Of a stretch of DNA of 64,000 bases, positions 8,378 to 51,452 are shown piece after piece. Location of the stretch: the IMG/VR virus record IMGVR_UViG_3300045988_003495; one strand, 5' to 3'. This DNA is from a virus. Taxonomy: Duplodnaviria > Heunggongvirae > Uroviricota > Caudoviricetes. The notes under the pieces were generated by a model. The model ran no database searches and had not been told where the DNA came from. It worked only from the letters and a program-made list of their open reading frames with translations. How positions within the stretch are numbered: position 1 is the stretch's first letter; each line of letters opens with the position of its first letter. The translations under genes and the position numbers were made by a program.

Positions 8378-8592
8378 AGCAAATTCTCGATGTCTACACG
8401 TTCACCTTTTAAGTAGCCTGTCTTATCTTTTGCAATTTTGCCTCCAGCAATAAAGATATCTACTCTACGAAGAAATTCAGGACTTACCTTCAAATTTCTA
8501 GAACCACTGCAAAGAGCAATAAACATTCCTTCAATCTCTTTTTGAGAATAACCAGCACATTGCAACTGAACTTCAATCTCTGAAAGCGTCAT
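8374..8592 (-). CDS. hypothetical protein, paralog of 7953..8186
   Basis: conserved C-terminal K-D-K-T-G-Y-L-K-G-E-R motif. Confidence 0.45.
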   Translation of the reverse strand: MTLSEIEVQLQCAGYSQKEIEGMFIALCSGSRNLKVSPEFLRRVDIFIAGGKIAKDKTGYLKGERVDIENLL

Positions 8593-8643
8593 GTGACCTC
8601 CTATACAAGATATAGTATAAGGTACTCTTCCCTGAGCACCTTG

Positions 8644-9195
8644 TCAACTTAGTTTTGCAAACTCTCCGTGGAGTTTTATCGCAGCTTCACAGTAAGCTTT
8701 ATGGGCTTCTTCAGGTGTGTCAAACATACCAAGATGATAGTTTTTACCTTGTAAACGTATCATTGCTCGAAACCTTTTACTTATCTTCTGTACACCTTTT
8801 GGCAACCCAGATGGGGACTCTCTTGACCGATTGCAAGAGTTTTGTGAAGCTGTACAAACCCTTAAATTCAAGTACCTATTGTCCCAACCGTCCCCATTCT
8901 TATGGTCAACCTGTAAGGTTTTATCAGGTAGATATCCATCCATATACAAGATAACTAAACGATTTGCTTGGTAGCCCCTTCCATCAATCAGCAACTGAAC
9001 TGACTTGTGTCCATCAGTATTTGTTCTGTAGTTTCCAGCCCTCTTACCTCCAAATCTAGAGTTAAAGTTTGCATTACCTTCTCTAAACTTCCAAGTAAAG
9101 ACCCCTGTTTCGGGGTCGTAGTCCAATAGCTCCTTAAGACGAATTTCTGTAATCATTTCAACACCATCAATGTACTTCCAACCAGCTCTTACCAA
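8644..9195 (-). CDS. HNH homing endonuclease with AP2-type DNA-binding domain
   Basis: N-terminal YDPETGVFTWK, HNH core QVDHKNGDGWDNRYLNLRVCTASQN, C-terminal AP2-like GMFDTPEEAHKAY; paralogous to 18759..19250 and 32481..32972. Confidence 0.75.
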   Translation of the reverse strand: MVRAGWKYIDGVEMITEIRLKELLDYDPETGVFTWKFREGNANFNSRFGGKRAGNYRTNTDGHKSVQLLIDGRGYQANRLVILYMDGYLPDKTLQVDHKNGDGWDNRYLNLRVCTASQNSCNRSRESPSGLPKGVQKISKRFRAMIRLQGKNYHLGMFDTPEEAHKAYCEAAIKLHGEFAKLS

Positions 9196-11896
9196 CCTTA
9201 CCTGTGCCAGTTACAAGCGTCTCACTCTTCAAACCTAAATTCTTAGATGCCTGACCATACATCCAGTCAGTTATGGCTTTAACTTCTTGAGTCATACTTT
9301 CTGGACATTCCCAACTGTTTTCATCGTGGTATGCCAGCAAAAGCCTAGCACCAATTGCTGGTTTTCGTCCATTTAATTTTGTCAACCCTTCTTCACATGC
9401 TCTTCTACAAGCAAGGTTAATTGCCTCATTTTGAATCTGAGCCTCTGAACCCATCAAAAGATAGTTCAATAATTTGTGTGGAGATTTACACCACAACCAA
9501 GCTCCAGCAACCTTTACAAAACCCCCTTTAGAGATTGCAGCAGTCTTACCAAATACCTCTTCAAGTGCCTTTTTAGTTGCTTTGTAGTCAGCTTCCAAGT
9601 CATCTAACAGCTTCTTAATTTTAGGCAAACGGATAAAGTAAGTCTGTTTAGTCAGCGCACCCTCCTGAGTAGTTGCAGCCTTAATCGTCTTAGCAAACTT
9701 CTCATCACCTGCACCGAACAGCAGTGCATAGATACCATTCTTAGCTTTCTTACGACCTTTGCTAATCTCATGAAGAAGATTCTCATCCTGAGTAGCTCGA
9801 CAAGTCAAGATGTCCTGCTCATCGTTCAAGCTAAAGTAAATACTGTTCAGTGTATGTGCATCAGTCCCTGAATAGACAACGTACAGGTCATTCTCAGAGT
9901 CATAACGAAGGTACTTATCAATCTCTGGGTTGAGGTACTCATCAAAGTGTTTGCAGTAATAGCGTCCATCTTCTTGACGAATAAACTCAATCTCTTCTTT
10001 ACCTTGCGTTACCGCTTTGGTGAAGTCTTTGTCACCCATAAAGTTACAAAGGAGAACTAGCTGGGCTGAGTTCATGTCTACAGAGACAACGTTAGTACCT
10101 TCTTCACAAATCCACACTGCCCTCATTGGTTCCCCATAGACAGCAGCACCAGACGGTACGTTTACAATACCATATTGTGTCATACGACCAGTTGAAGTAC
10201 CAAACACCGTTGCACCAGCACTAAGGCGACCGTCAGGACGAATCTGGTTCAACCAACCTTTTTCATCATCCTTTGAGTTCTCAATAGTTCTGCGTCTGTG
10301 CATCAAAGTGTAGTATTTCGCAATCTTCTGTCCAAGCTCACCTTCAATCGTATCATAGGATGATTCGGTAAGTTTTGGTGAAGTACGGATTAAGCAAGGC
10401 TCAAGCAAATCTGTGTATTTCTTCACAGACCAGTTATGCTCAATGTACTGGACACCTTCATGCTCAACATAACTCAAACCACACCGCTCAACCATTTCCT
10501 GCCACTTAGGATGCTTTGTAATCATCTTTTTGTTGTCTTTGAAACGACAAACTTTGACAGGGCGACCATCTGAGTCTTTCTTGTAGTTCCAGTCATCTGG
10601 AATCCAACCAACTGATTTCAAGTAGTCTTTAACAACTGCTACCTGAGTCATACGAGAAACTTCAAACTCAATTGGTGTATACGGTGCATCAATCAAACCT
10701 GTGTAGCGACTTGACTCAAGTTCAAAGTGGTTAACAACGTGACTGTTATAGTACTTCACAGTTTTGACTGTTTTTACTGGCTTCCAGTCTTTGCATTTCT
10801 TACCAATCTTTGCATTCAACTCATTGCAAATTGCACGAGCATCCTTCATTGCTACAAAACCCTCCTTGTACTCTTCACCAGTTACAGAGTTGGTTGGTGT
10901 ATAGCAATTTCTCTTTTCAATGTTAAAAATCTTTGTAGTTGGCTTACCAAATGGTTTGATTTCGTATGTCTGCATCTCACCATTACGTACCTGCTGACGG
11001 TACTTTGTCTTAGGGTACTTGGTAATTCTCTTCAGTCCATCTGCATGACCAAATGTTTCAACATACTCATTCCAAGCTTTTGCAAACTCTTCTCCAGTCA
11101 CTTTACCTTTGGTCTTAATAGTTGGAGGTAGATGTGGTTCAACCTCTGAAGCAAGCTCATTAGTCAACTTGTCAAGTTCCTTTACATGGAACTCCATAAG
11201 CTCCTTATCAGCTTTCCAACCATTGATAGCTTGTTGACTCATCCAGAAAGATGTTTCTTTAGCTCGCATATAGGTTTCATAAGTATCTATGCCACACTTC
11301 TTAAGCTTGAGATACTCATTATCAAGTGCCCGTTTAGTTTTGGCGTTAATACGGATATCTTCTACAACACGAGTGAAGATTTCTGCATTCCACACACCCC
11401 AATGTTCAATCTCTGGTTTACGGACACCAACACGAGCACCCCATGCAGCCAAACCATGAGCACCTTTATAACCCTTTGGGGTTGGCCTATCCATCCACTG
11501 AACACGAGACTGGATAAGAGAATCCTGAAAGAAATTACTCCACGGCTTACATTTTGGATTATCAAAGTTCCATAAATCAGGCGCAATGTGATTGAAAACC
11601 CACCAGTCATAGCCGAGACCATTATGGATGCAAAGACGTTTTGCCTTTAACGCAAATTCAACACCTTCACGTAAGCCGCCCTTGATGTACTTAGTGTACT
11701 TGTGACCGAGGATAGGCTCATCTGTAAAGACCCATACAGGTGGCTCTTCATCGTCAGATTTATAGTCTGCAAAAGCCATTACGTGAACTTTAGTGAACTC
11801 AAGGAGTAAACCATCAGTTTCTGTATCACCAACCAAATGTAAGTTTTTAAAATCTACGTTTTCCATTTTTACTCCCTCTAAAATCATTAACCTCAT
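9167..11896 (-). CDS. DNA polymerase, family A, with N-terminal exonuclease region
   Basis: 909 aa; motif A VSVDMNSAQLVLL, motif B RKKAKNGIYALLFGAG, motif C LLAYHDENSWE all contiguous in one ORF. Confidence 0.9.
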   Translation of the reverse strand: MRLMILEGVKMENVDFKNLHLVGDTETDGLLLEFTKVHVMAFADYKSDDEEPPVWVFTDEPILGHKYTKYIKGGLREGVEFALKAKRLCIHNGLGYDWWVFNHIAPDLWNFDNPKCKPWSNFFQDSLIQSRVQWMDRPTPKGYKGAHGLAAWGARVGVRKPEIEHWGVWNAEIFTRVVEDIRINAKTKRALDNEYLKLKKCGIDTYETYMRAKETSFWMSQQAINGWKADKELMEFHVKELDKLTNELASEVEPHLPPTIKTKGKVTGEEFAKAWNEYVETFGHADGLKRITKYPKTKYRQQVRNGEMQTYEIKPFGKPTTKIFNIEKRNCYTPTNSVTGEEYKEGFVAMKDARAICNELNAKIGKKCKDWKPVKTVKTVKYYNSHVVNHFELESSRYTGLIDAPYTPIEFEVSRMTQVAVVKDYLKSVGWIPDDWNYKKDSDGRPVKVCRFKDNKKMITKHPKWQEMVERCGLSYVEHEGVQYIEHNWSVKKYTDLLEPCLIRTSPKLTESSYDTIEGELGQKIAKYYTLMHRRRTIENSKDDEKGWLNQIRPDGRLSAGATVFGTSTGRMTQYGIVNVPSGAAVYGEPMRAVWICEEGTNVVSVDMNSAQLVLLCNFMGDKDFTKAVTQGKEEIEFIRQEDGRYYCKHFDEYLNPEIDKYLRYDSENDLYVVYSGTDAHTLNSIYFSLNDEQDILTCRATQDENLLHEISKGRKKAKNGIYALLFGAGDEKFAKTIKAATTQEGALTKQTYFIRLPKIKKLLDDLEADYKATKKALEEVFGKTAAISKGGFVKVAGAWLWCKSPHKLLNYLLMGSEAQIQNEAINLACRRACEEGLTKLNGRKPAIGARLLLAYHDENSWECPESMTQEVKAITDWMYGQASKNLGLKSETLVTGTGKVGKSWLEVH

Positions 11897-41855: not shown

Positions 41856-42060
41856 CAAAGATACTGGAGAAGTCACGTCAGCATGTGTTTTCGTGAGTCA
41901 CGACACAGTGATACCATTTTACAGCCTCGACAGTTTTAGTTTTACAGGGACAACTCCAGAGGAATACTTTGAAGACCTCACCTTTGCCAGAATTTCCATA
42001 AACACATTCTATAAATGCTTCTATGATGAAGGTAAAGAATTACGAGAAACTGAACTATAA
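41833..42060 (+). CDS. hypothetical protein
   Basis: 75-aa ORF. Confidence 0.35.
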   Translation: MKAIEVIDKDTGEVTSACVFVSHDTVIPFYSLDSFSFTGTTPEEYFEDLTFARISINTFYKCFYDEGKELRETEL

Positions 42061-42072
42061 GGTATATATTAT

Positions 42073-42273
42073 ATGGCTGACTTCTGCAAAGACTGTTCTA
42101 TCGAAATGTTCGGACGTGATACAGGTGACTTAAAAGGTCTCGTCACTGAAGATGACTTTAAAGCTGGTTATGCGATTCCAGTAATCTGTGAAGGCTGTGG
42201 GTGTATCTGGGTAGACCACGAAGGGCAACGTGTAAAGCCTTCAGAAGATAAAGAATCTTGGGAGAGATGTTAA
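42073..42273 (+). CDS. zinc-ribbon protein (hypothetical)
   Basis: CKDC ... CEGCGC. Confidence 0.4.
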   Translation: MADFCKDCSIEMFGRDTGDLKGLVTEDDFKAGYAIPVICEGCGCIWVDHEGQRVKPSEDKESWERC

Positions 42274-43059
42274 ATGGGTATTGTAAAAATCATCAAAGGT
42301 GATATCTTTGACGCCTTTGATAAAGGTAAGTTTGACATCATTGGTCATGGTTGTAACTGTATGAATTTAATGGGTGCAGGTATTGCAGCAACTATTTCTA
42401 AGCGTTATCCAAAAGTGTATGATACTGACACAGAAGTTTACCTGTTTGCAGGTGGCATTCGTCACAAACCCTGTGAAAATTTACTAGGTAATTTCTCTGT
42501 AGCACGTTTAAAACAAGGCCGTATAGCTAACCTTTACACCCAACTTCATACTGGTAAAGATGCCCGATACAGTGCTTTAGAGTCATCCTTGAAACAGCTT
42601 AACAGATACTGTGAAGTTAACCAGTTGAAGAAAGTTGGTCTACCTATGATTGGTGCAGGTATCGGTGGACTTGACCCTCAAGCTGTCACAGTTATCATTA
42701 ATCAGGTGATGAAGAGTGTAGATGTTTATCTGTATGTCTATGAAGCAAAAATGTATAATGAGTTACACTCAGGTTGGAAAAACTACTGTGAACCAGAATA
42801 CTTTGCAGGTGTAGTTGTGTTCACAGATAACGCAGTTACCCTCTTCAGACGAAGAAAAGGTAAGATACATCAAAGTAACCCTCCGGTTGAAAAGATGTCT
42901 CTAAGTAACGCTCTAGTTACCCACCTGTCGAAGAGCAATCACAGAATTGCAGTAACATTTGGCAGTGATGCAGATGCTTATATCTATGCAAGAACTGATG
43001 AGGATATTGAGTTAATCCTCTCTTCACCAGAACTTACCTTCTTAGACGCAAAGAACTAA
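42274..43059 (+). CDS. macro-domain protein (ADP-ribose binding/processing)
   Basis: N-terminal GDIFDAF...DIIGHGCNCMNLMGAGIAATI resembles the macro-domain glycine-rich ADP-ribose pocket. Confidence 0.5.
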   Translation: MGIVKIIKGDIFDAFDKGKFDIIGHGCNCMNLMGAGIAATISKRYPKVYDTDTEVYLFAGGIRHKPCENLLGNFSVARLKQGRIANLYTQLHTGKDARYSALESSLKQLNRYCEVNQLKKVGLPMIGAGIGGLDPQAVTVIINQVMKSVDVYLYVYEAKMYNELHSGWKNYCEPEYFAGVVVFTDNAVTLFRRRKGKIHQSNPPVEKMSLSNALVTHLSKSNHRIAVTFGSDADAYIYARTDEDIELILSSPELTFLDAKN

Positions 43060-43107
43060 GAAACTTCGTAGTATATTCACAATAGACTAAGCCTTTCTTA
43101 TCTGGTA

Positions 43108-43326
43108 AATTTTTCAGGTAAGGAGGGCTTTTTCATTTCAGATTTGTGCAGGTAGAGTTCTGTAGAGAAATCTATAGAGAAAATTTTGAACTCCAAAGAG
43201 AAAATTCATTTTCAAACTGTGCAGGTAATCTCCAAAGGGTTTTTTCATTTTCAAAACGTGCAGAGAAAAATCAGGTCGGGCAAGAAAAATCATTTTAGAA
43301 TTGTGCAGGTAGGTGGGGGTAGGTGG
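43108..43326. repeat. array of four to five direct repeats CATTTTCA-RAWY-TGTGCAGGTA plus tandem ggtaggtggg
   Basis: copies near 43131, 43205, 43245, 43288; ggtaggtggg x2 at 43307-43326. Confidence 0.6.
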
Positions 43327-43488
43327 GACTGTCGCCATTTCTCACAAGGCTACCACATCTGAAAATAAAAGTCAACAGAAAAATTTGTAGCGGATTGAAA
43401 AATAATTCTTGATTGTAGTTCTGTTTTGTGGTAGTCGCGCGCACCCGTTTCATTACAATTTTTGCAAAAAATATTTTTAAAAATTTTC

Positions 43489-43517
43489 TTGACTCTTTGA
43501 ACTGGGTTATCTAATAT
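43489..43517 (+). promoter_or_regulatory. sigma70-type promoter (TTGACT-N17-TAATAT)
   Basis: -35 at 43489-43494, -10 at 43512-43517; upstream of first gene of the small-gene array. Confidence 0.55.
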
Positions 43518-43569
43518 TTGCATCAGACGGGGCGACAAGCTCAACAACCTTAAACTAGGAGATTCAAAA

Positions 43570-43953
43570 ATGGCATATCGTGCACCTAAATTCATCAACA
43601 AAGACAACTTTCGCAACGCACTGGAGAAGTCACTTGATGAAAATTTTAAAGGTAACATTATCGTTGTTCACGCATTCAATTTTAAGTATGATGTAAACGG
43701 GAATAGAATCAACCATTACACGGCAACCATGTTAGATGGTACACTTTCAAGTGAAAAAGCCGTACTAAATGCACTGGCAGGACGTGGAAAGGTATTAGTA
43801 AGATGTGATAAGAGACGTTATCAGGGCGGTGCATATGGTTATGATGATGCTGTTTACCATCTTGAAAATATGGGCTATCAAGTAGAAAAAGCTGGAGCAT
43901 CACAAATCATCGGCAGTGATGGTTATGTAACTATCTTCAAAATTAACAAATAA
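43570..43953 (+). CDS. hypothetical early protein
   Basis: 127 aa; RBS taggag; ends in the conserved KINK* that starts the repeat cassette. Confidence 0.45.
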   Translation: MAYRAPKFINKDNFRNALEKSLDENFKGNIIVVHAFNFKYDVNGNRINHYTATMLDGTLSSEKAVLNALAGRGKVLVRCDKRRYQGGAYGYDDAVYHLENMGYQVEKAGASQIIGSDGYVTIFKINK

Positions 43954-44039
43954 AGTACTTTACAAGGGGCTTATAGTTCGATAAAGTAAGCCCCAGATAA
44001 AGAGCTTTACTACTCAATCCTAAATTGGAGAACTTAAAA
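43954..44039 (+). repeat. intergenic cassette type I (hairpin ggggctta...taagcccc plus conserved leader and RBS)
   Basis: hairpin 43966-43994; near-identical copies at 46196-46280 and 47330-47414. Confidence 0.6.
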
Positions 44040-44333
44040 ATGGCTATTATCAAAAACGTTGTAATTACTGCAAAGACTCGTGATGACGCTCGCGTTATGG
44101 CTAAAAAGTTATGCGGTAAAGTGGTTGACAACGGAAAACAATCTGCTGTAAGGTGGGGCGTGAAGGTTGATAAACAGTTGAAGTTAAAAAATTCACCGAT
44201 AAACCTTTTTACATGTGTAAACACTATCGGGAAGACAAATGTATACACGAAAAAGGCATACATTAGACGCGTAGCATTAACATCCCCCATTCGTACAATG
44301 AGAAGTTATGCAAAGCTGAAAATTAACAAATAA
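44040..44333 (+). CDS. hypothetical early protein
   Basis: ATG at 44040 after ttggagaac RBS; also ends KINK*. Confidence 0.4.
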   Translation: MAIIKNVVITAKTRDDARVMAKKLCGKVVDNGKQSAVRWGVKVDKQLKLKNSPINLFTCVNTIGKTNVYTKKAYIRRVALTSPIRTMRSYAKLKINK

Positions 44334-44418
44334 AGTACTTTACAGGGGGCTTAAAAGTTGATATCTTAAGCCCCAGATAAAGAGCTTTACTACTCAATCC
44401 TAAATTGGAGATTCAAAA
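44334..44418 (+). repeat. intergenic cassette type I variant
   Basis: hairpin ggggcttaa...ttaagcccc at 44346-44374; stem sequence altered but pairing kept. Confidence 0.55.
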
Positions 44419-44931
44419 ATGAAAACTGTAGACGCTACCTTTGAAGTTGTAAAAGAAAAATTCACTATTATTTATGAAGCTGTCAATTGCTTTGAAGCAA
44501 GCCATAATCTTGATAATTGGAAGTTTACAGATGACCATCAAGGCGGCGTGACTGTTAAAAATCCTAACTGTCAGCGTAATGAATTTAAATATGCAATCCC
44601 TTTACATTACAGCCTTAAACAGCTTTCAAGTGACTATGCAAAACAAGGCCGTGAGAATCCATCGAAAGAGGCTTACACGAGCTTACAGAAAGAACTAGAA
44701 AGAGATTTAGAGGCTTCAGAGTATAACCTTGCCGCGAAAGTTGTGGATGCAAACGGTAGCACGGTTTTAGAAAGTTTTTATCTTGGTTATGCTTTCGATT
44801 GGTGCTATCGTGACGGCGATGATTTAGAGGATAGACTAAAAGAAGAGGTGAACAACGCAGACGCAGAATCTGAAGTATTAGAACGTTTGGAATCGTTGAA
44901 AGACTCAGTGATGAATATCTTTAAGAACTAA
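44419..44931 (+). CDS. hypothetical early protein
   Basis: 170-aa ORF. Confidence 0.45.
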   Translation: MKTVDATFEVVKEKFTIIYEAVNCFEASHNLDNWKFTDDHQGGVTVKNPNCQRNEFKYAIPLHYSLKQLSSDYAKQGRENPSKEAYTSLQKELERDLEASEYNLAAKVVDANGSTVLESFYLGYAFDWCYRDGDDLEDRLKEEVNNADAESEVLERLESLKDSVMNIFKN

Positions 44932-45023
44932 ATAGATTCCTTTACACGGGGTTATCAAGCTGGTAGGATAGCCCCAGATAAAGAGATTTATCAAATAAAG
45001 CCCTTAAACTAGGAGATTCTAAA
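44932..45023 (+). repeat. intergenic cassette type I variant
   Basis: hairpin ggggttatc...gatagcccc at 44948-44974 then conserved leader and RBS. Confidence 0.5.
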
Positions 45024-45320
45024 ATGAAATTATCAAATAAAGTCCGTGAAAATTTAAGCAAGTTACTTAATAAAATTGATTTCATTGAAACATCAAGGAA
45101 TAGTCATGATGTTATGGAATGGTTACACGGAAAAATCAAAGGCCGTCGTGTAGTGATTTGCTTATGGAACAGTTGCAGGGAGTATAAAAAACCTGTATTG
45201 CAAGTCAATATTTATGATGATACTTTTAAAAGTCCTGTAAAATCTAAAAGCGATTTATTAGAATCCTATGAGATAACTGTAAATGGCAAAGTATCACGTA
45301 AAGAGGAAACACCATGTTAA
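45024..45320 (+). CDS. hypothetical early protein
   Basis: 98-aa ORF. Confidence 0.4.
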   Translation: MKLSNKVRENLSKLLNKIDFIETSRNSHDVMEWLHGKIKGRRVVICLWNSCREYKKPVLQVNIYDDTFKSPVKSKSDLLESYEITVNGKVSRKEETPC

Positions 45321-45646
45321 TGACTGGTATCACTGCAATCATTGCCATTTTCGCTCTATATAAGGCATATAAAGCCTATAATCTAGCAAATAAGGCAACC
45401 ACCCAGCAGGTTAGCAATAGCCTTGTAGAAAGATTTCTAGGGCGTTTAAGTGATGAGCAAATAAAGCGGCTAGAGATGAGCTTCAGATATAAAGCGAAAA
45501 CCTATCAGATAAGTGACATCTTCAAAGATAATTTTCAGTTAGTTGATGATTATAATTCTCTGATAAATGCTTTAAATGTCAGTGACTTAAAAGACTACTA
45601 CGCTGTAATTGTTCAAGAATTGAGCAAACGAAAACAAAACTGTTGA
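45314..45646 (+). CDS. hypothetical early protein
   Basis: 110-aa ORF with N-terminal TM-like segment. Confidence 0.4.
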   Translation: MLMTGITAIIAIFALYKAYKAYNLANKATTQQVSNSLVERFLGRLSDEQIKRLEMSFRYKAKTYQISDIFKDNFQLVDDYNSLINALNVSDLKDYYAVIVQELSKRKQNC

Positions 45647-45736
45647 CACTGGTTTTTAGATAGATTAAATTACACATCAACGGGGAGGGAATGACCTTCC
45701 CCACTAAATAAAGCCCTTAAACTAGGAGATTCAAAA
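45643..45736 (+). promoter_or_regulatory. cassette type II: promoter TTGACA-N17-TAAATT plus leader hairpin ggggagggaatgaccttcccc plus RBS
   Basis: -35 at 45643-45648; hairpin 45682-45702; copies at 46696-46787 and 48258-48349, diverged copy 48724-48913. Confidence 0.55.
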
Positions 45737-45895
45737 ATGTTTTGTGCAGGTGATAAAGTTGTCTGGAATGATATAGATGACGGTTTATGTACGAAAGTTG
45801 TTGTTATCTTAGAAATTGATTATATCACTGGTGTTGCAACTGTAGCAGATAATGATATAATCTTTGATGTCTTAATTAGTGAACTGTCAAAATAA
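45737..45895 (+). CDS. hypothetical small protein (52 aa)
   Basis: ATG after conserved taggagattcaaaa RBS; below ORF-track cutoff. Confidence 0.3.
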   Translation: MFCAGDKVVWNDIDDGLCTKVVVILEIDYITGVATVADNDIIFDVLISELSK

Positions 45896-45921
45896 AATCC
45901 TTAAACTAGGAGATTCTGAAA

Positions 45922-46194
45922 ATGTATACTACTAACAACGGTCGCACTTTAAACGTAACCCTGCGTCACTATGTGAATGGTGTGATGCACTTTGATGATT
46001 TACAAGCTGAGCAACACATCTTAAATTGGCAAGTTGCAGGACTCCAAAAAACTGCTACAGGATACGGGAAAAAGATTCCAACCAGTTGGAAAGTATACTA
46101 CAAAGGACGTTTGCGCAGAATTTATCAAGACGTGCAAAGCAATAGCGCATCGAGTTACATTATAGTAAAAGGCAAAAAACTGCATTTAATGTAA
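45922..46194 (+). CDS. hypothetical early protein
   Basis: 90-aa ORF with conserved RBS. Confidence 0.4.
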   Translation: MYTTNNGRTLNVTLRHYVNGVMHFDDLQAEQHILNWQVAGLQKTATGYGKKIPTSWKVYYKGRLRRIYQDVQSNSASSYIIVKGKKLHLM

Positions 46195-46195
46195 A

Positions 46196-46280
46196 GCACT
46201 TTACAAGGGGCTTATAGTTCGATAAAGTAAGCCCCAGATAAAGAGCTTTACTACTCAATCCTAAATTGGAGAACTTAAAA
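46196..46280 (+). repeat. intergenic cassette type I (near-identical to 43954-44039)
   Basis: hairpin 46207-46235. Confidence 0.6.
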
Positions 46281-46685
46281 ATGGCTATTAATAACCGTGA
46301 ATTATCAATTTTAAAAGCACGTTTGACCGTTAACCGGATTAATGTTATCACGTCATCAGCACCAGATGAAACACTGCAAAACATTATTGGGAAGATTCAA
46401 AGTGTTATCTTAGACGTTGAAAGCGTAAAAAACTCATTGACTGACGTTGCAGCAGGTATCACGCTAGACGGTGCACAACATGAAATGGCCGACATGTTAG
46501 GCAAATCTAAGGTAATGAATAAAGAGTTAGATTTGAAAATGTTCCGATTTGCTGTTAAAGTGTGGTTATCTGTCGAGTATGATGCTAACTTTGCAATCGC
46601 TGACTTTTTTGCCACTTGGTTGCAGCGTAATTTGGCAAATCACGATTTCCGTAATATCTGCGATGCAATTTATGCAGAACTATAA
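46281..46685 (+). CDS. hypothetical early protein
   Basis: ATG at 46281; 134 aa. Confidence 0.4.
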   Translation: MAINNRELSILKARLTVNRINVITSSAPDETLQNIIGKIQSVILDVESVKNSLTDVAAGITLDGAQHEMADMLGKSKVMNKELDLKMFRFAVKVWLSVEYDANFAIADFFATWLQRNLANHDFRNICDAIYAEL

Positions 46686-46695
46686 AAAATTTTTG

Positions 46696-46787
46696 TTGAC
46701 ACTGATTTTTAGATAGGCTAAATTACACATCAACGGGGAGGGAATGACCTTCCCCACTAAATAAAGTCCTAAACTGGAGATTCAAAA
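46696..46787 (+). promoter_or_regulatory. cassette type II copy (promoter plus leader hairpin plus RBS)
   Basis: -35 at 46696-46701, -10 taaatt, hairpin ggggagggaatgaccttcccc. Confidence 0.55.
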
Positions 46788-46991
46788 ATGGCTATTATTA
46801 ATGGTTTAACCATTGAAACTACACACATCAAAGATATCAAAGTTGGTGATATAGTCCTTTCCCACGGCGTAGAAAAAACTGTCACTGCAAAGGATATCAA
46901 AGAGGATTCTTTCATGGGTAGGACTCTCTTCGGTGATTCTTATTGCTTAGGCTATCTTGCAGTTTTAAAAGTTGTCAAAAATAACAAATAA
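46788..46991 (+). CDS. hypothetical early protein
   Basis: 67-aa ORF. Confidence 0.4.
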   Translation: MAIINGLTIETTHIKDIKVGDIVLSHGVEKTVTAKDIKEDSFMGRTLFGDSYCLGYLAVLKVVKNNK

Positions 46992-47078
46992 AGTACTTTA
47001 CAAGGGGCTTAAAAGTTGATAACTTAAGCCCCAGATAAAGAACTTTACCACTAAATCCTAAACTGGAGATTCTAAAAA
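46992..47078 (+). repeat. intergenic cassette type I variant
   Basis: hairpin ggggcttaa...ttaagcccc at 47004-47032. Confidence 0.55.
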
Positions 47079-47327
47079 ATGATGAACTACTTTAACATTC
47101 CCGATACCTGTAGATTATTGACACAAGAAGAAAATTTGGGTAAACCTTTCATTTACCACATGCCAGATAACACGGCAAAAACTTATAGTTACAATGTTAA
47201 CCGTTTCACCGCATACGCTGCAAAGAACGGCTATAGGTTGGTTACTCAAAAAGTAATGCTGGTTACAACTGCTGGCGAGATTCCTACAGTTGCAGTCAAA
47301 CTAGTTTTCTCAAAGAAAGTTAAATAA
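47079..47327 (+). CDS. hypothetical early protein
   Basis: 82-aa ORF. Confidence 0.4.
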   Translation: MMNYFNIPDTCRLLTQEENLGKPFIYHMPDNTAKTYSYNVNRFTAYAAKNGYRLVTQKVMLVTTAGEIPTVAVKLVFSKKVK

Positions 47328-47329
47328 AG

Positions 47330-47414
47330 CACTTTACAAGGGGCTTATAGTTCGATAAAGTAAGCCCCAGATAAAGAGCTTTACCACTCAATCCTTAAAC
47401 TAGGAGATTCAAAA
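47330..47414 (+). repeat. intergenic cassette type I copy
   Basis: hairpin 47340-47368. Confidence 0.6.
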
Positions 47415-47957
47415 ATGAAATGTTATCACGGAACTACTCAAGAAAATTTCCTCAACCTGATTAATAACGGTGATAAACCATCAGGCGCATGGAATTGTTC
47501 GGATATGGACGGCAATTTTTACGTGTATCCAGAAAATAAAATCTATGGCGACGATGATGAAGAGATAACATCGGAGGGCATTCAGCAAGCTCTAGGGAAC
47601 GCCACTATTACGGCGGCCTTCCAGATGAAAACCCAAAATATTGTTATCTTAGAACTCGATATTCCAGATGATGAGCTAAATGATGATTATTCTTGTGATA
47701 ATATGTCGAGTGTAGCAAGTTTTACAGAGTACTTTGATGTAAACTGGATTAAAAAGGTCTATACAACAGAGTTTAACGCTATGTATTCGCCTTTTTGTCT
47801 TCCTTCACTGGATAACCCAAATATGAACTATCTTGATGAGACATTAGAACTACTTGCTAAAAGTGTTCAACAGTCGGACAGTATTCAGGTTTTTTGTGAC
47901 ATCATAGATACACTGACAGGAAACATTGCAGAAGAGGATTTAAAGAGCTTTTTCTAA
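47415..47957 (+). CDS. hypothetical acidic protein
   Basis: 180 aa, rich in Asp/Glu clusters (GDDDEEITSEG, DIPDDELNDDYSCDN). Confidence 0.45.
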   Translation: MKCYHGTTQENFLNLINNGDKPSGAWNCSDMDGNFYVYPENKIYGDDDEEITSEGIQQALGNATITAAFQMKTQNIVILELDIPDDELNDDYSCDNMSSVASFTEYFDVNWIKKVYTTEFNAMYSPFCLPSLDNPNMNYLDETLELLAKSVQQSDSIQVFCDIIDTLTGNIAEEDLKSFF

Positions 47958-47988
47958 AAACCTATGCAATCACCTTATAGACACTAAT

Positions 47989-48010
47989 CAGCCCCTTGTA
48001 GGGGCTTTTA
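47989..48010 (+). terminator. rho-independent terminator
   Basis: agcccc-ttgta-ggggct followed by ttt. Confidence 0.55.
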
Positions 48011-48023
48011 GAGGGCTTAAATC

Positions 48024-48257
48024 ATGCTTACAACCGTTTACCTCATCCTTTCTATTTGTAACGGTCATTCATGCGATTTTAAAGGGCTTGAAGAGTTTAC
48101 AGGAAGTAAAGAAAATGCTATTCAAGTTTGCCAGATAGCAAGGAAAGACTATCCCGCTAGTGATGATATACAATGTTACTTTAAGACAGAAGATGACGAC
48201 GGAATCTATTTCGACAGTGTTGACGGTAAATATGAAATTATCATTGAAAAAGACTAG
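48024..48257 (+). CDS. hypothetical early protein
   Basis: 77-aa ORF. Confidence 0.4.
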   Translation: MLTTVYLILSICNGHSCDFKGLEEFTGSKENAIQVCQIARKDYPASDDIQCYFKTEDDDGIYFDSVDGKYEIIIEKD

Positions 48258-48349
48258 ACAAGCCCGATAAAAGTCTGTAAATTGTCAATCAACGGGGAGG
48301 GAATGACCTTCCCCACTAAGTAAAGTCCTTAAACTAGGAGATTCTAAAA
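48258..48349 (+). repeat. cassette type II copy (leader hairpin ggggagggaatgaccttcccc plus RBS)
   Basis: hairpin 48294-48314. Confidence 0.5.
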
Positions 48350-48691
48350 ATGGCTTATGTAACCGTAATTACCGATAAAGCTGGCGCATCTTGGTCAACT
48401 CAGGTTAGTGATAAGATGTCACCTATGCAGTGCCTAAAATACTTTGAACAGTGGAACAAAGGCGAGGACACAAGCCCCTTTCAAGTGATGCAGATTATCC
48501 ATGTAGATAACGAAGGGAATAAAACGGTTTTAAATAGTGAGTACTACGCAAGCCGTTTTGAAACGAGAAGTAAAACAATGAAGCTTTTACGTGAATCCGG
48601 TTATGCCCATATCGCCGCGTTAATCTGGGATGACCTGCTAAAAAACCAACGTATCAGCTATGTAAAACCTGAAAAAATATTCATCAGTTAA
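48350..48691 (+). CDS. hypothetical early protein
   Basis: 113-aa ORF. Confidence 0.4.
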   Translation: MAYVTVITDKAGASWSTQVSDKMSPMQCLKYFEQWNKGEDTSPFQVMQIIHVDNEGNKTVLNSEYYASRFETRSKTMKLLRESGYAHIAALIWDDLLKNQRISYVKPEKIFIS

Positions 48692-48913
48692 TCAATAACT
48701 TACAAAAAACTTTTAAAAAAGTGTTGACAATACCCCTTGACATTGGTAACTTTGTTCGAGGGGGTTTATCTAAAAGGGATTCACTTAAAAGATTCTTTAT
48801 AGATAAGCTCAAAAAATTACTTGCAATCAACTATCAAAACAAGTAAATTACTAATCAACGGGAAGGCAATAACCTCCCCACTAAATAAAACCCTTAAACT
48901 AGGAGATTCAAAA

Positions 48914-49162
48914 ATGGCAACTATCCGCGCTACTGTCAATGCCTATGGCTGTTATACTCTGGACGTTAAATTCGATATTGGTGGAACTGATGAGTGTTTT
49001 TCATTAGTGAAGACAGTTATCAAACAAGTTATTCCAGATTATAACCCTACTGATGACTTCTGGAAAGATGCTGTAAAAGAGGCATTAAACGACGAGCATC
49101 ACTATCATTACTGGGGTGACTTGATTGTTTCCCTGTACTACAATAAACAAGGTTACAACTAA
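48914..49162 (+). CDS. hypothetical early protein
   Basis: ATG at 48914 after conserved RBS; last gene of the array. Confidence 0.4.
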   Translation: MATIRATVNAYGCYTLDVKFDIGGTDECFSLVKTVIKQVIPDYNPTDDFWKDAVKEALNDEHHYHYWGDLIVSLYYNKQGYN

Positions 49163-49199
49163 TCGACGCAGCGGGGCTAAATAGCCCCAGATACCTCAA

Positions 49200-49228
49200 C
49201 AGCCCCTATTTAAAGGGGCTTTTTTACG
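49200..49228 (+). terminator. rho-independent terminator ending the small-gene array
   Basis: agcccct-attta-aggggct followed by tttttt; preceded by a second hairpin ggggcta-aa-tagcccc. Confidence 0.65.
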
Positions 49229-49570
49229 TCTATTGAATCCTTATACAATCCCTTTCCTTTCCTTTCCAGAATCTTACTAGACCTTAAAAGCAATAACTCT
49301 ATAGTCTACTCTATAACCTCTTATCAAATCAACTTAAATATAAGCCCATAACCCGAAAGGGAAGGGCAACCGTTTAAACGCTCTATAAAGCTCTATAACA
49401 GCCTTATCAACCTAACTTAAGGGATTGCATTAACTCACCCTTAAAAGCCCTTTATAAAGCTTCTCAGAGACTTAAAAGAATCTTATAAGGGTGTAAGCTT
49501 TATCGTCTCGTTAGTTATCTTGTGAATATCTAAAAAGGGCTTGTTAGTGTCTTAAAAGTATGTTATAGGG

Positions 49571-49636
49571 GCTATAAAGTTACGTAAAAGAGGCTATAAA
49601 GTTACGTAAAAGAGGCTATAAAGTTACGTAAATACT
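49571..49636. repeat. 22-bp tandem direct repeat, three copies
   Basis: gctataaagttacgtaaaagag x2 then gctataaagttacgtaaatact. Confidence 0.85.
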
Positions 49637-49689
49637 AGCCCCCTTAACATTCTCTTAACAATTTCTTAACAATCCCTACATAGTTATGC

Positions 49690-50230
49690 TTTTAAGGCAC
49701 TTGTTAGCAACTTGTTAGCCCCTTGTTAAATCTCTGTTAAGACCACGTAAAAGCCTTGTAAGAGTCTTTGACATAGCCTTAAAAGCTCCTGTAAAGCCCT
49801 ATAAAGAGCTATCTGTACAGTTGGGGTGTAACTACTAGGAAGAGACTTAAAAGGGGCTATACAGAGCTATAGAGAGCTTTTAAGAGGTATGTTTAAGGAA
49901 TCACTAAGAAAGGAAAGGGAACGATAAGAAAAGAGATAGTGACCATGTTAATAGCTTGTTAAAAAGATTAAACACTTGTTAGAGACTTGTTAATTATCTT
50001 AACAAAATAACTCTTAAAAATTAACTTGTTAGCTCTTGTTAGTCATCTGTTAAGAGACTATAAAGACCATGTATCGACTGTTAAGAACTTGTTACAACCT
50101 TGTTAGTTCTGTTAAGAGTCTGTTAAGACCTCTGAAGAGATGTTAAGAAGGTGTAAGGACTGTTAAGAGATTGTTAAGGATATTTTAAAATTTTGCAAAG
50201 TACTTGTAAGGGAGCTGTTAAGGGCTACCA
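49690..50230. repeat. dense iteron array of short motif YTGTTARG with about 10-11 bp periodicity
   Basis: more than 20 copies, e.g. cttgttag, ctgttaag, cttgttaa between 49690-49745 and 49935-50225; no ORF of 60 aa or more on either strand. Confidence 0.8.
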
Positions 50231-50369
50231 AGCAGATATACACCCTAATCAGATATTTTTCAGTTCCTTCAAAGACCCTAAAAAATGACTTGACAGTCTT
50301 ATTTTATAAAAATTTTAAAATTCTGAATAATTACCTAGACAGTCTTTTAAAAATACAGGTAGAAACAGG

Positions 50370-50700
50370 CTTATAAGATACCTTGTTAATACCGTGTTAG
50401 ACCTTGTGAGATAAGGTCTGTAAAGATATTCCTGTTAAGTTTGTTAAAACAGTCTATATAGAGGCTTAGTAACACCTAGTGAACACCTATAGAGAGTGTC
50501 ATAGCTTACATAGAGATTAAGAGGTGTATAGGAGCTTCTAAGAGTGTGTAGAGAGATGGTTAAGATGATTGTATAGGTTGTTTAGAAGGCTTGTTAGAAG
50601 AGTGTTTAGATGGCTATTTAGAAGGGCTATACAGAGGGCTATTAAGACCACTAGATAGTTACTAAGATACTATATAGTACTATATAACTATATAGAGAGT
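50370..50700. repeat. second iteron block (GTTAG/TTTAGAAGG motifs) ending in AT-rich tatatag repeats
   Basis: cttgttaataccgtgttag..., gtttagaagg/cttgttagaag/gtgtttagatgg/ctatttagaagg, then tactatatagtactatataactatatag. Confidence 0.6.
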
Positions 50701-50828
50701 AAGATTAAGAAGATTGTTAAGAAGGATAGATATTTTATTCACATATGATGGTGACCCAGAGGTTGGGACAACCGATAAAATTTTATAAAAATTAAAAAGC
50801 CCCCAATTAAGGAGGCTCTTAAGATATT

Positions 50829-51452
50829 TTAAATCAGTGTTTCCAGAACTGTTTTCAATGATGACTTAGTTGTCTGGTAAAAATGAGTGAACCCATTATT
50901 GTTATCGAATATCTGCATCATGATATCATCTCCCTTGATTGGGTACACTCGGATATCATAGTGAAACCCATTAAAGACAGCAGAACCATTACAGAACACA
51001 CTAAAGTCAGCCACTGAGATATACTCTTCATGTCCTGTGATTTTTATACAAACACCTTTACTCGGTCTCTTAGGGTTGATATCTTCCATCACAGACATAC
51101 TCTGTCCACCAAGAGATATCATAGTGACCACTTTACGGTTCTTCTGTTTAAAGTACATCTTAACTTTCTGCAAAGTGTCTTCATAGAACGGATAAGACTT
51201 CTCTACAAATATTCCTTCAAGTGGCTCTTTACCATTTTCAACTTCTCTGGTATGTCGTACTGCAAAGATAATTTGTTGGAACCAGTCAAGATTTTCTTCG
51301 GAGAGTGCTTCTCGAACATCACTCCAGTCAAGGACTAGGTAGTTACCTTCAACATCTTTTAAGTTATCTTTTTCCATATCTATCACACCATTATCGTAAA
51401 ACTTGATATTCTGGTACTGCGAATTTATTACTATTGTTCTTGATGAGGTCAT
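50829..51452 (-). CDS. hypothetical protein
   Basis: 207-aa ORF, last gene of minus-strand block converging on the iteron region. Confidence 0.45.
   Translation of the reverse strand: MTSSRTIVINSQYQNIKFYDNGVIDMEKDNLKDVEGNYLVLDWSDVREALSEENLDWFQQIIFAVRHTREVENGKEPLEGIFVEKSYPFYEDTLQKVKMYFKQKNRKVVTMISLGGQSMSVMEDINPKRPSKGVCIKITGHEEYISVADFSVFCNGSAVFNGFHYDIRVYPIKGDDIMMQIFDNNNGFTHFYQTTKSSLKTVLETLI

Follow-up and report, generated by a model that had tools for sequence, protein, structure and literature searches.

Proposed promoter, hairpin and ribosome-binding-site cassettes in a probable hyperplastic early-gene array of a Felixounavirus genome

The locus at 43570-49162 raises the question of why a run of small phage genes should be separated by nearly identical, structured intergenic sequences, and what these sequences do. 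Our analysis covered the window (the whole stretch of 64,000 nucleotides), which is a Felixounavirus genome (Felix O1-like myovirus). The locus corresponds to Felix O1 genes 14-23 and is bounded by the Felix O1 terminators t13 and t23. Repeats in Felix O1-type arrays were already listed in 2010, without interpretation. The initial annotation had assumed a phage with a T7-like replisome; genes for a family A polymerase and a Toprim-DnaB fusion were indeed found, but the phage itself is a Felixounavirus myovirus. We consider it probable that the small ORFans of this locus lie behind portable promoter/hairpin/RBS cassettes that are also recombination sites.

Genes and cassettes of the array

The array contains 14 ORFs, all on the plus strand, which agrees with the first count of about 14 small genes. 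Gene presence was counted over 21 arrays; hairpins and -10 hexamers were compared across 24 Ounavirinae genomes.

43570..43953, +, W1: 127 aa; phrog_4495; in 16 of 21 arrays
44040..44333, +, W2: 97 aa; phrog_5089
44419..44931, +, W3: 170 aa; missing or replaced (by x9, x12) in 8 of 21 arrays
45024-45320, +, W4: 98 aa; 7-nt overlap with W5, cassette-free
45314-45646, +, W5: 110 aa; 7-nt overlap with W4
45737..45895, +, W6: 52 aa; no family; in only 3 of 21 arrays
45922..46194, +, W7: 90 aa
46281..46685, +, W8: 134 aa
46788..46991, +, W9: 67 aa
47079..47327, +, W10: 82 aa; in 4 of 21 arrays
47415..47957, +, W11: 180 aa; predicted ADP-ribosyltransferase fold; homolog of Bas63 gp107
48024..48257, +, W12: 77 aa
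48350..48691, +, W13: 113 aa
48914..49162, +, W14: 82 aa; two allelic forms in the relatives, at about 68% and 99.6% identity

Of the 13 proteins other than W11, none had a Pfam match; 12 matched PHROG families of unknown function, and W6 had no PHROG match. W11 models as an ADP-ribosyltransferase, and this predicted fold fits, for W11 alone, the suggestion that the small proteins are host-takeover or anti-defence factors. The described sharing of codons was seen: W2, W8 and W9 begin with MAI, W1 and W2 end in KINK and W9 ends in KNNK. The claim that each gene has its own cassette stands for most of them, but not for the overlapping W4/W5, for W6/W7 with an RBS module only, or for W11/W12 with a terminator-like hairpin. 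W6 lies between two directly repeated copies of the RBS module (45706-45739 and 45890-45923).

Two types of cassette share this RBS module (CCTTAAACTAGGAGATTC; seven exact copies, all in the array, 0.05 expected) at their end. In type I the module follows a bipartite hairpin of 22 bp around a sigma70-like promoter, TTTACA-N17-TAnnnT. The hairpin has a lower stem of 12-13 bp, which includes the stop codon of the upstream gene, and a 9-bp upper stem, with a 3x3 internal loop between the two. The motif AGCCCCAGATAAAGAGCTTTAC had six matches (at most 2 mismatches), all in the array and with 0 expected by chance. A 99-nt family has copies at 43951, 44331, 46192, 46989 and 47325 (79-99% identity) and a diverged copy at 44932. 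Type I had been described as a hairpin ggggctta-N13-taagcccc with an RBS: the repeat family, the hairpin and the RBS are there, but the hairpin is far longer and the promoter had been overlooked.

43951..44039, +, type I cassette 1: hairpin 43951-44009; promoter TTTACA-N17-TAAAGT 43959-43987; RBS UGGAGA
44331..44418, +, type I cassette 2: hairpin 44331-44389; promoter TTTACA-N17-TATCTT 44339-44367
44932..45023, +, type I cassette 3: hairpin 44932-44991, stems compensated; promoter TTTACA-N17-TAGGAT 44941-44969
46191..46280, +, type I cassette 4: hairpin 46191-46251; promoter 46200-46228; 99% identity to cassette 1
46989..47078, +, type I cassette 5: hairpin 46989-47047; TTTACA at 46997; weak -10 TAACTT
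47325..47414, +, type I cassette 6: hairpin 47325-47383; promoter 47333-47361

Cassette 3 is a diverged 'group 3' form that is always preceded by W3. Type II cassettes consist of TTGnnn-N17-TAAATT, 10 nt, a GC hairpin of 7-8 bp and the RBS module. The core of the hairpin was matched three times (at most 1 mismatch; expected number 0), and a fourth, diverged copy lies at 48819-48898. These cassettes were recovered as first described, with the promoter TTGACA-N17-TAAATT, except that the copy at 48255 has TAGACA as its -35.

45643..45736, +, type II cassette 1: promoter TTGACA-N17-TAAATT 45643-45671; hairpin GGGGAGGG/CCTTCCCC 45682-45702; RBS module
46696..46787, +, type II cassette 2: promoter 46696-46724; hairpin 46735-46755
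48255..48349, +, type II cassette 3: promoter TAGACA-N17-TAAATT 48255-48283; hairpin 48294-48314
48692..48913, +, long W13/W14 spacer: two tandem promoter-like sites (TTGACA-N17-TAACTT 48724-48752; TTGCAA-N17-TAAATT 48821-48849); degenerate type II hairpin 48860-48879
43489..43517, +, array-leading promoter: sigma70-like TTGACT-N17-TAATAT, then RBS module 43548-43565
47990..48010, +, terminator-like hairpin between W11 and W12: AGCCCCTTGTAGGGGCT then UUUU; not a cassette
49173..49226, +, array end: mini-hairpin GGGGCTAAATAGCCCC then AGATA; intrinsic terminator AGCCCCTATTTAAAGGGGCT then T6 (Felix O1 t23)

In most relatives a type II hairpin follows the array-leading promoter. The W13/W14 spacer is the junction where the relatives' genes x1 and x4 are missing from the window, the W11/W12 hairpin is annotated as a terminator in wV8, and the mini-hairpin at the array end is a type I relic without promoter. 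Database searches placed type I at 1362 places in 289 phage records and type II at 1409 places in 248. Selfish intergenic repeats that spread by themselves (REP- or MITE-like elements, or homing-nuclease targets) and have no role in expression would likewise produce numerous near-identical copies in each genome, concerted evolution between positions and spread across the subfamily. We regard such an origin as extremely improbable: the copies all have the same orientation, run exactly from stop codon to next start and bear the Shine-Dalgarno sequence of the downstream gene. Moreover, they are confined to the one array, as judged over the whole 64-kb window and the upstream stretches of 20 related loci (about 2.7-9 kb each), and protein family searches found no transposase or homing endonuclease gene in it.

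Predicted promoter signals and RNA hairpins

Both types appear to carry sigma70-type promoters, whose activity we infer from sequence conservation. All 74 unique type I copies have TTTACA as their -35, with a spacer of 17 nt, while at the -10 T1, A2 and T6 are kept (1.86, 1.86 and 1.72 bits) and positions 3-5 are free (0.39-0.50 bits). This -10 register, at which 11 distinct TAnnnT hexamers occurred among 13 read (with more in copies from Mooglevirus, Suspvirus and Kolesnikvirus), tracks the -35 and not the 3' arm of the hairpin. For type II there were 131 pattern matches, of which about 115 are real cassettes; TAAATT was present in 102 matches, and nearly all have TTGnnn or TAGACA exactly 17 nt 5' of the -10. 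The A+T content 5' of the -35 is 64-82% versus 61% in the window. Type I -10 hexamers are weak, with 4/6 matches (3/6 for TAACTT of the 46997 copy). Promoter-like matches in the region are in modest excess (32 versus 20.9 +/- 4.4 in shuffles), and strong matches (at least 10/12) are not enriched in the array over the rest of the window.

Hairpin folding gave -23 to -29 kcal/mol (z -2.4 to -5.4), and all of more than 20 type II variants fold. In a set of 66 unique stems drawn from four genera, pairing holds in 90% of cells, compared with 35-54% in slid controls. The stem covariation score was 0.190 versus 0.076 in shuffles, none of 500 reaching 0.190, although cassette copies are related by descent and conversion and such shuffle statistics therefore overstate independence. 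Compensatory pairs across genera (GC/UA, UA/AU, CG/UG/UA, GC/UA/GU) and the compensated stems of the 44932 copy bear out the observation that variant stems keep pairing. Since the stems covary and tolerate G.U pairs on the sense strand, selection acts on the RNA. The hairpins would serve in RNA processing, possibly by RNase III, or in stabilisation.

Type I cassettes could be pure RNase III sites, with one or few upstream promoters, a long early RNA cut between cistrons and promoter hexamers that are coincidental, on the model of the T7 early region with its RNase III-processed polycistronic transcript. Besides the RNA-level selection, the hairpin of about 22 bp (two helical turns) with its conserved 3x3 loop and conserved A.A or G.A mismatch, placed between cistrons and free of a U-tract, favours cleavage. 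This structure has the epitopes given for E. coli RNase III substrates, in which internal loops confine the cut to a single strand and a protective 3' hairpin is left behind (PMC1540722). The type I loop, however, keeps T-A at fixed positions and a T four nt later, exactly 17 nt from the invariant TTTACA, and does so through all 11 TAnnnT hexamers and even where the stem register has shifted. RNase III is not known to require any particular loop sequence. In type I copies of Erwinia phages the lower stem is lost but the -35/hairpin/-10 design is retained, and no Rfam family matches the element. Processing alone is thus an unlikely reading; but a cassette could be both a promoter and an RNase III site, and processing forms part of the explanation that we prefer.

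The lower-stem arms TAAAGTACTTTA and TAAAGAGCTTTA could instead be operators at which a dimeric, phage- or host-encoded protein represses early promoters, the long hairpin being a by-product of two palindrome copies. TAAAGTACTTTA is a perfect 12-bp palindrome over the -35, a second, near-palindromic copy lies just 3' of the predicted start, and both are highly conserved. In the copies after W3 and in LNA1, however, the arms are non-palindromic and yet mutually complementary, through G-C to U-A double changes and G.U pairs, which fits a sense-strand RNA hairpin and not two independent operators. With no candidate regulator identified, we hold operators to be very improbable.

Ordinary terminators or attenuators, with the repeats as regulatory punctuation and recombination incidental, are a further reading. 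Several type II hairpins of ASO1A were annotated by their depositors as rho-independent terminators, the GC-rich type II stems reach -10 to -15 kcal/mol, and a comparable stem-loop of T4-type PeSL cassettes acted like a terminator, cutting downstream lacZ as much as a strong one (PMC2839356). The 3' flanks of our hairpins, however, are AGAUAAAG and ACUAAAUAAAG; no cassette has a U-tract there, so these are not canonical or simple terminators. A terminator scan of the plus strand found only the real terminators t13 and t23. Furthermore, each type II promoter precedes its hairpin, and an efficient terminator at that place would silence the gene that follows. Together with the recombination record below, this makes the terminator reading quite improbable.

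Gain, loss and replacement of genes

Among relatives the conserved flanks are 4171-9000 bp apart. Gene order is collinear and never permuted, and presence or absence varies for W1, W2, W3, W6, W10, x1, x4 and others. All deletion junctions examined consist of one cassette of matching type (I-I, II-II or RBS-RBS). Internal BLAST HSP ends fell inside cassette intervals, which make up 24.5% of the region, in 152 of 162 cases; the binomial test on these breakpoints likewise overstates independence, and HSP ends tend to be intergenic wherever neighbouring genes differ in presence. The near-identical relative LF110P4 shares W1, W11, W12 and W14 at 99.6-99.8% identity but lacks the nine genes W2-W10; at the junction stands a chimeric type I cassette, which has the left SNP of the W1 cassette and the right half of the W11 cassette. 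Identity to ASO1A alternates from gene to gene between 91.6% and 100%, and cassette variants are spread non-orthologously over array positions. Some divergence switches lie where there is no cassette, such as one close to the W4/W5 overlap.

As the clustering of breakpoints and the chimeric junction show, the array changes mainly by recombination at its cassettes, which speaks against the terminator reading. Cassette-linked gain and loss, and not fixed gene content, is what the relatives display. The proposed T4-like shuffling by mobile cassettes holds in this sense, but there is no reordering: gain, loss and allele replacement are all that it comprises.

Proposed working and relation to T4-type phages

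We propose that each small ORFan has in front of it a co-oriented, portable regulatory cassette (about 90 nt), made up of a host sigma70-type promoter (in type II TTG(ACA/CAA/ACG/ATT)-N17-TAAATT), a GC-rich hairpin without U-tract and a strong Shine-Dalgarno module. With such promoters host RNA polymerase could start at almost every gene. The type I hairpin, spanning two helical turns with its conserved 3x3 internal loop, physically encloses the promoter and would thus form only in read-through RNA of the upstream gene; an RNase III-type cut in the loop may yield a 5' end nearly that of initiation at the embedded promoter. The type II hairpin starts 10 nt past the -10, so that the transcript made from its promoter would be predicted to begin some 3 nt before it. 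The hairpins would punctuate overlapping, polycistronic early RNAs, capping the 3' end of the upstream message and, in type II, also forming a 5' hairpin. In Felix O1, RT-PCR gives the early assignment crude support: genes 16, 20, 21 and 22 peak at 5 min, but 14, 17, 19 and 23 at 25 min.

As near-identical direct repeats of about 90 bp, the cassettes are, as the comparison of relatives shows, homologous-recombination sites for deletion, insertion and replacement of single genes or blocks, between and within co-infecting relatives, and each gene retains its own expression signals. A promoter/stem-loop system, PeSL, has previously been described from T4-type phages, and the Felixounavirus cassettes are much alike. 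The Felixounavirus array is a hyperplastic early-gene array with a PeSL-like system outside the T4 lineage.

Setting of the small-gene array

Megablast with the region 43300-49300 and the gene upstream of it (42274-43059) returned over 200 Felix O1-like myoviruses (Ounavirinae, Felixounavirus), with identities of 90-99%. The initial annotation had described a T7-like replisome, and a family A polymerase and a Toprim-DnaB fusion are indeed present, but the phage itself is not T7-like. The array is a real and well delimited feature. Fourteen ORFs of 52-180 aa (W1-W14), all on the plus strand, occupy 43570-49162 as the counterpart of Felix O1 genes 14-23 and are bounded by the Felix O1 terminators t13 (43089-43130 in the window) and t23 (49201-49220). 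Thirteen of the encoded proteins fall into PHROG families of unknown function, W6 being unmatched, and none of the 14 matched Pfam. Homologs of W4, W5 and W9 are named tail sheath, tail tube or prohead scaffold in several GenBank records, including those of related loci L009 (9607-10229) and L016 (12180-12808 and 13769-13966); these structural names look like propagated annotation errors, since the proteins are ORFans of 65-112 aa. The following features flank the array or mark its end:

42274-43059, plus strand: macro-domain protein of 261 aa directly upstream of the array, nearest to OARD1/TARG1-type ADP-ribose hydrolases
43133-43312: direct repeat of 23-34 nt in three copies, TCATTT(C/T)AGAnTTGTGCAGGTAG, between t13 and the first array promoter
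49173-49193: mini-version of the upper type I hairpin that lacks the promoter (GGGGCTAAATAGCCCC, then AGATA), just before the true terminator at the array end
49240-50828: ORF-less stretch of 1.6 kb where plus and minus strand transcription converge

Together with W11, which has a predicted ADP-ribosyltransferase fold, the macro-domain protein suggests a possible writer/eraser pair for ADP-ribosylation. The GenBank note for Meda mentions a possible RNase III inhibitor, and a reading of the upstream gene as a YmdB-type RNase III regulator was considered; it is weak, since OARD1/TARG1 are the nearest proteins of solved structure and the match to a chain named RNase III inhibitor reaches only E = 3e-5. 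Small ORFs annotated on either strand of 43133-43312 in some records look spurious. The ORF-less stretch downstream of the array is dense in iteron-like tandem repeats (a 22-nt unit repeated three times at 49570-49632 and 10-11-nt units CTTAACAATCT, ACTTGTTAGCA and CTGTTAAGAGA) that form inverted arrays separated by about 400-500 bp. Felix O1 relatives have a stretch of similar length with no annotated genes, and the region may serve as an origin or a protein-binding platform.

Structure and possible function of the two cassettes

The repeated cassettes between the small genes, as noticed in the initial annotation, were borne out and proved to be confined to the array. The type I core AGCCCCAGATAAAGAGCTTTAC is present in six copies (0 expected), the type II hairpin core in three copies plus one diverged copy, and the RBS module CCTTAAACTAGGAGATTC in seven exact copies (0.05 expected); every match to type I, type II or the RBS module lies within the array and none elsewhere in the 64 kb. 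Cassettes were likewise not found upstream of the array in 20 related loci (about 2.7-9 kb each). RBS modules common to the cassettes, UAGGAGAUUC and UUGGAGAAC, stand 6-8 nt ahead of each ATG.

Each type I copy folds as one long bipartite hairpin of -23 to -29 kcal/mol (z-scores of -2.4 to -5.4 against shuffled sequences). The lower stem of 12-13 bp starts from the upstream stop codon and pairs UAAAGUACUUUA with UAAAGAGCUUUA, including one A.A mismatch and one U.G pair; next come a 3x3 internal loop with CAA opposite AGA, 9 bp of upper stem (GGGGCUUAU/GUAAGCCCC) and a loop of 10-11 nt. In a MAFFT alignment of type I copies 90.1% of cells paired, compared to 32-54% with slid partners, and covariation was 0.103 versus 0.068 in shuffles, with 0 of 500 shuffles reaching the observed value. 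This alignment placed the one-base gap of the W3-type copies in the 3' arm and thereby mis-registered three upper-stem pairs. A recount on stem-anchored constructs (24 genomes, four genera, 66 unique sequences) gave 90.2% paired cells versus 35-54% in slid controls and a covariation of 0.190 versus 0.076 in shuffles (0 of 500) and at most 0.023 in slid controls; since the sequences are related by descent, the figures of both alignments are supportive and should not be read as probabilities. Double-sided changes were seen at upper pairs 3 (GC 62, UA 4), 5 (CG 43, UG 22, UA 1), 7 (UA 53, AU 13), 8 (AU 51, UA 11) and also 9, and at lower pair 6-49 (GC 47, UA 10, GU 3).

Both lower arms of the common type I form are near-palindromic, so that a pair of DNA operators was considered as a reading. 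This was rejected: the W3-type copies and LNA1 have lost the palindromes, and their arms still pair with each other through G-C to U-A changes and G.U pairs. Because the arms stay complementary after the palindromes are lost, the pattern argues for a hairpin in the sense-strand RNA. A selfish-repeat reading of the cassettes was also considered and rejected.

The same type I sequence carries sigma70-like promoter hexamers. An independent consensus scan flagged TTTACA-N17-TAAAGT, TATCTT or TAGGAT at five of the six type I copies. The -35 element occupies the top of the lower stem and the internal loop, the spacer corresponds to the 5' arm and loop, and the -10 element spans the boundary between loop and 3' arm, the GGGG...CCCC stems thus filling the spacer and overlapping the -10. 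Among 98 copies (74 unique) from 21 Felixounavirus arrays, anchored on the -35, TTTACA is invariant in the unique copies, and -10 positions 1, 2 and 6 hold 1.86, 1.86 and 1.72 bits, compared to 0.39-0.50 bits at positions 3-5 and 0.9-1.3 bits at adjoining loop positions. Thirteen different hexamers occur at the -10 register, namely 11 of the form TAnnnT, one TAAAGC and one TACCAT that lies one base off (18-nt spacer). In the copies following W3 the stem register has moved by one base relative to the 3' arm, and the hexamer is still found 17 nt from the -35. The same spacing is seen in Mooglevirus, Suspvirus and Kolesnikvirus copies (TAGTAT, TAATCT, TACCAT, GATTAT). To our knowledge there is no reason for an RNA hairpin loop to keep three key -10 positions at a fixed distance from the -35, and their conservation is good, though indirect, evidence that the embedded promoter is functional. 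Promoter density gives no support here, as strong sigma70 matches (at least 10 of 12 positions) were not enriched in the array in a window-wide count. The 22 nt upstream of the -35 contain 64-82% A+T compared to a window mean of 61%, a modest rise in a stretch that is partly coding.

Two designs in Erwinia phages, from a distant genus, retain the layout of -35, hairpin and -10 with quite different sequences. In phiEa21-4 (locus L021, at about 6652-6720, 9139-9216, 9544-9615, 11137-11200 and 11441-11508) the first design has TTGCAA or TTTACA, N17 and GATTAT wrapped round GGGGTTAT..ATAACCCC, and the second is TTGACA-N18-TAAAAT, whose -10 falls in the loop of GAGGGG..CCCCTC. It seems to be the architecture rather than the sequence that is conserved across these promoter-in-hairpin designs.

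Type II cassettes are built in a different order, with TTGACA (or TAGACA, TTGCAA), 17 nt, TAAATT, a conserved stretch of 10 nt (ACACATCAAC), a hairpin of 7-8 bp (GGGGAGGG-AAUGA-CCUUCCCC), ACUAAAUAAAG and the RBS module. Of 131 pattern matches, of which about 115 represent real cassettes, 102 carry TAAATT, and nearly all have TTGnnn or TAGACA 17 nt upstream of the -10. More than 20 hairpin variants were found, all of which fold (-6 to -15 kcal/mol). The predicted start lies 7-8 nt past the -10 and leaves about 3 unpaired nt ahead of the hairpin, which would therefore cap the 5' end of the cassette's own transcript. In E. coli mRNAs such as ompA, a 5'-terminal stem-loop guards against RNase E-dependent decay. 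Two features associated with the type II copies or their neighborhood are listed here:

45692-45712, 46745-46765 and 48304-48324: mini-ORF of the type II hairpin, probably not functional, as its AUG is absent from many variants in relatives
48692-48913 (also 8441-8637 in related locus L022 and 12870-13070 in L023): long spacer after W13 with two tandem promoter-like sites

The mini-ORF, six codons within the commonest hairpin (ATGACCTTCCCCACTAAATAA; AUG ACC UUC CCC ACU AAA UAA, right after GGAGGG), was dropped as a candidate. The spacer after W13, which three genera share, has a CCCC...GGGG inverted repeat around its first promoter-like site; a 41-codon GTG ORF in the same spacer (48721-48846) is probably no gene.

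A GC hairpin followed by a U-tract was the criterion for an intrinsic terminator, and none of the cassette hairpins is followed by a U-tract, their 3' flanks being AGAUAAAG or ACUAAAUAAAG; they are therefore not canonical intrinsic terminators. A terminator scan of the plus strand returned only t13 and t23. Of 23 related loci, 16 have the promoter-less mini-hairpin GGGGCTAAATAGCCCC at the array end in exactly the same form, suggesting a role of the hairpin that does not depend on the promoter. Rfam searches of 42000-51000 at permissive E-values gave only sub-threshold chance matches to miRNAs and leaders.

Substrates of E. coli RNase III span about two helical turns, and an internal loop can limit cleavage to one strand, leaving a protective 3' hairpin (PMC1540722). 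The type I double helix is of about this length (12-13 bp and 9 bp stacked over the 3x3 loop) and has the conserved CAA/AGA internal loop together with an A.A or G.A mismatch. Processing by RNase III is thus a tentative reading, to which we give roughly a third of our credence; alternatively, the same stable stem might act as a non-specific block to 3'-exonucleases or as an attenuator. The predicted transcript of the type I promoter starts roughly at the internal-loop AGA and includes only the 3' half of the hairpin, so that the full hairpin would form only in read-through RNA from the upstream gene. Under RNase III processing, a cut in the AGA loop would fall 1-3 nt from the predicted start of the embedded promoter, and processing and initiation would give the same mRNA 5' end.

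Gain, loss and replacement of genes at cassettes

The initial annotation proposed that such cassettes shuffle early genes. Across related phages the link of gene gain and loss to cassettes held up. The flanking genes are more than 90% identical in all phages compared, and the distance between them varies from 4171 to 9000 bp. Presence or absence of array genes is frequent among 21 Felixounavirus arrays, in which protein clustering gave a collinear pan-order (x, genes of relatives that are absent from the window; vertical strokes, alternatives at one position): x2 x5 x3 W1 W2 W3|x9|x12 W4 W5 W6 W7 W8 W9 W10 W11 W12 x6 x8 W13 x1 x4 W14. No change of order was found among the 21 arrays, so that the shuffling in the original proposal stands as gain, loss and replacement at cassettes and not as reordering.

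All deletion junctions examined consist of one cassette of the same type as those flanking the missing block in other genomes. With the cassette written between the genes that it joins, type I junctions are W1[I]W11, x3[I]W11, W2[I]W4, W1[I]W4 and W7[I]W11, and type II junctions are W5[II]W9 and W8[II]W13, as well as W5[II]W7, which arose via a duplicated RBS module. When the window was compared with 20 relatives, 152 of 162 internal HSP ends fell in cassette intervals, which account for 24.5% of the region, the events not being independent. A further case is LF110P4. It matches the window at 99.6-99.8% identity in W1, W11, W12 and W14 and is without W2-W10 (3.4 kb, nine genes). Its junction is chimeric, combining the left SNP of the window's W1 cassette with the right half of the W11 cassette, and the crossover falls within the identical core of the type I cassette.

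Identity to ASO1A, otherwise the closest phage, shifts gene by gene over 13 values between 91.6 and 100% (99.3, 95.9, 91.6, 99.4, 99.4, 93.4, 99.8, 100, 100, 100, 95.3, 96.2 and 99.6%). Loop variants occur at scattered positions in different genomes, which indicates conversion among cassettes. One divergence switch, near the W4/W5 overlap, lies by a gene boundary without a cassette; cassettes are therefore preferred and not exclusive points of exchange.

A more far-reaching reading, which we consider unlikely as a whole, would give type I a dual code. The same 60 nt would be a promoter in DNA and an RNase III-type processing hairpin in read-through RNA, and identical mature 5' ends would make the expression of each cassette gene independent of its upstream context. 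The whole of the Ounavirinae would then exchange genes via cassettes in an integron-like manner with no integrase, and a structure-specific nuclease that acts on the hairpins might stimulate the exchange; the host-takeover genes traded in this way would include W11.

Significance and relation to known systems

Felix O1-like phages are widely used in typing, biocontrol and therapy of Salmonella and E. coli, and hundreds of genomes are available. Their most variable region is still annotated as hypothetical, with stray 'terminator', 'promoter' and 'tail sheath' labels; the build from two cassettes explains its variation in gene content. It also shows that modular exchange through cassettes, hitherto known from T4-like phages, has arisen with a different architecture in a myovirus lineage unrelated to them. 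The model gives exact predictions, open to test, of where transcripts start and where RNA is processed, and the cassettes offer natural insertion points and portable expression signals for phage engineering. The array genes, which include the ADP-ribosyltransferase-fold protein near the macro-domain gene, form an accessory pool in which to seek host-takeover or counter-defence functions.

Type I was matched at 1362 places in 289 phage records, among them those of Mooglevirus, Suspvirus and the Erwinia Kolesnikvirus, and type II at 1409 places in 248 records, none of them from Erwinia phages. Both repeats were already listed in the Felix O1 genome paper (Whichard et al. 2010, PMC3185647), the 57-bp repeat CTTTACATGGGGCTTAAAAGTCTGTAAAGTAAGCCCCAGATAAAGAGCTTTACCACT being type I and the 39-bp repeat TTGACACTGGTTTTTAGATAGATTAAATTACACATCAAC the type II promoter. 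That paper lists the repeats and proposes no promoter, hairpin, processing or recombination role for them; its promoter list is without the type I and type II promoters, and it states the transcription organisation to be unknown. The wV8 GenBank record annotates the same repeats as DR_1-DR_9, and the wV8 genome paper does not mention repeats or promoters. Among the papers searched for the repeat string, the Felix O1 paper was the only one on phages, the other three that contain it being unrelated to phages, and searches on Felixounavirus transcriptomics or an interpretation of the repeats gave nothing relevant.

Several known systems share parts of this architecture. Two leads are the intergenic repeats of halovirus HF2 (PMC8707807) and a preprint on bacterial promoter-terminator coupling (10.64898/2026.08.19.745784); they share with the array promoter-bearing repeats between genes and a physical overlap of start signals with the termination or processing signals of neighbouring genes, in other organisms and sequence families. 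The early RNase III sites of T7 (R0.3-R1.3; model R1.1, PMC1540722) resemble type I as irregular hairpins about two turns long that contain an internal loop, lie between early cistrons transcribed by the host polymerase and lack a U-tract, and in both cases the upstream message is expected to retain a hairpin that protects its 3' end. They differ in having no promoters, and type I shares no sequence similarity with them and has no Rfam model.

The closest likeness is to the PeSLs, the promoter-early stem-loop cassettes defined in the T4-type phages RB49/phi1, T4/PST and KVP40/nt-1 (Arbiol et al. 2010, PMC2839356; Comeau et al. 2014, PMC4122927). Both are conserved intergenic units of about 100 bp in ORFan-rich hyperplastic regions. 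PeSLs have an A+T-rich upstream stretch, a sigma70-like promoter with a polyG/polyC stem-loop within or beside it and, at the 3' end, a Shine-Dalgarno sequence with the start codon, and cassettes are likewise points of indels and replacements. In the Felixounavirus array we found candidate sigma70-like hexamers in a repeated intergenic motif, a stable GC stem, a 3' Shine-Dalgarno sequence with start codon, a single hyperplastic array of Pfam-less proteins (4.2-9 kb among relatives) and breakpoints at cassettes. The carrier is not T4-like, and in DNA searches both cassettes matched only Ounavirinae-type records. Promoter activity, terminator or attenuator activity and excision as minicircles have been demonstrated by experiment for PeSLs. 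Unlike PeSLs, the Felixounavirus cassettes belong to an Ounavirinae host lineage, have unrelated sequences and come in two co-existing families, without a U-tract and with gain, loss and replacement as the only events seen and no reordering. The 22-bp bipartite stem of type I spans the whole promoter and takes in the upstream stop codon, and in type II the stem follows the -10 and is part of its own transcript, a placement not described for PeSLs. The likeness to T4-type hyperplastic cassettes put forward in the initial annotation is thus supported in refined form: because lineage, sequences, number of families and stem placement differ, the Felixounavirus array is, as judged by this comparison, PeSL-like in function and architecture and not a PeSL system by descent.
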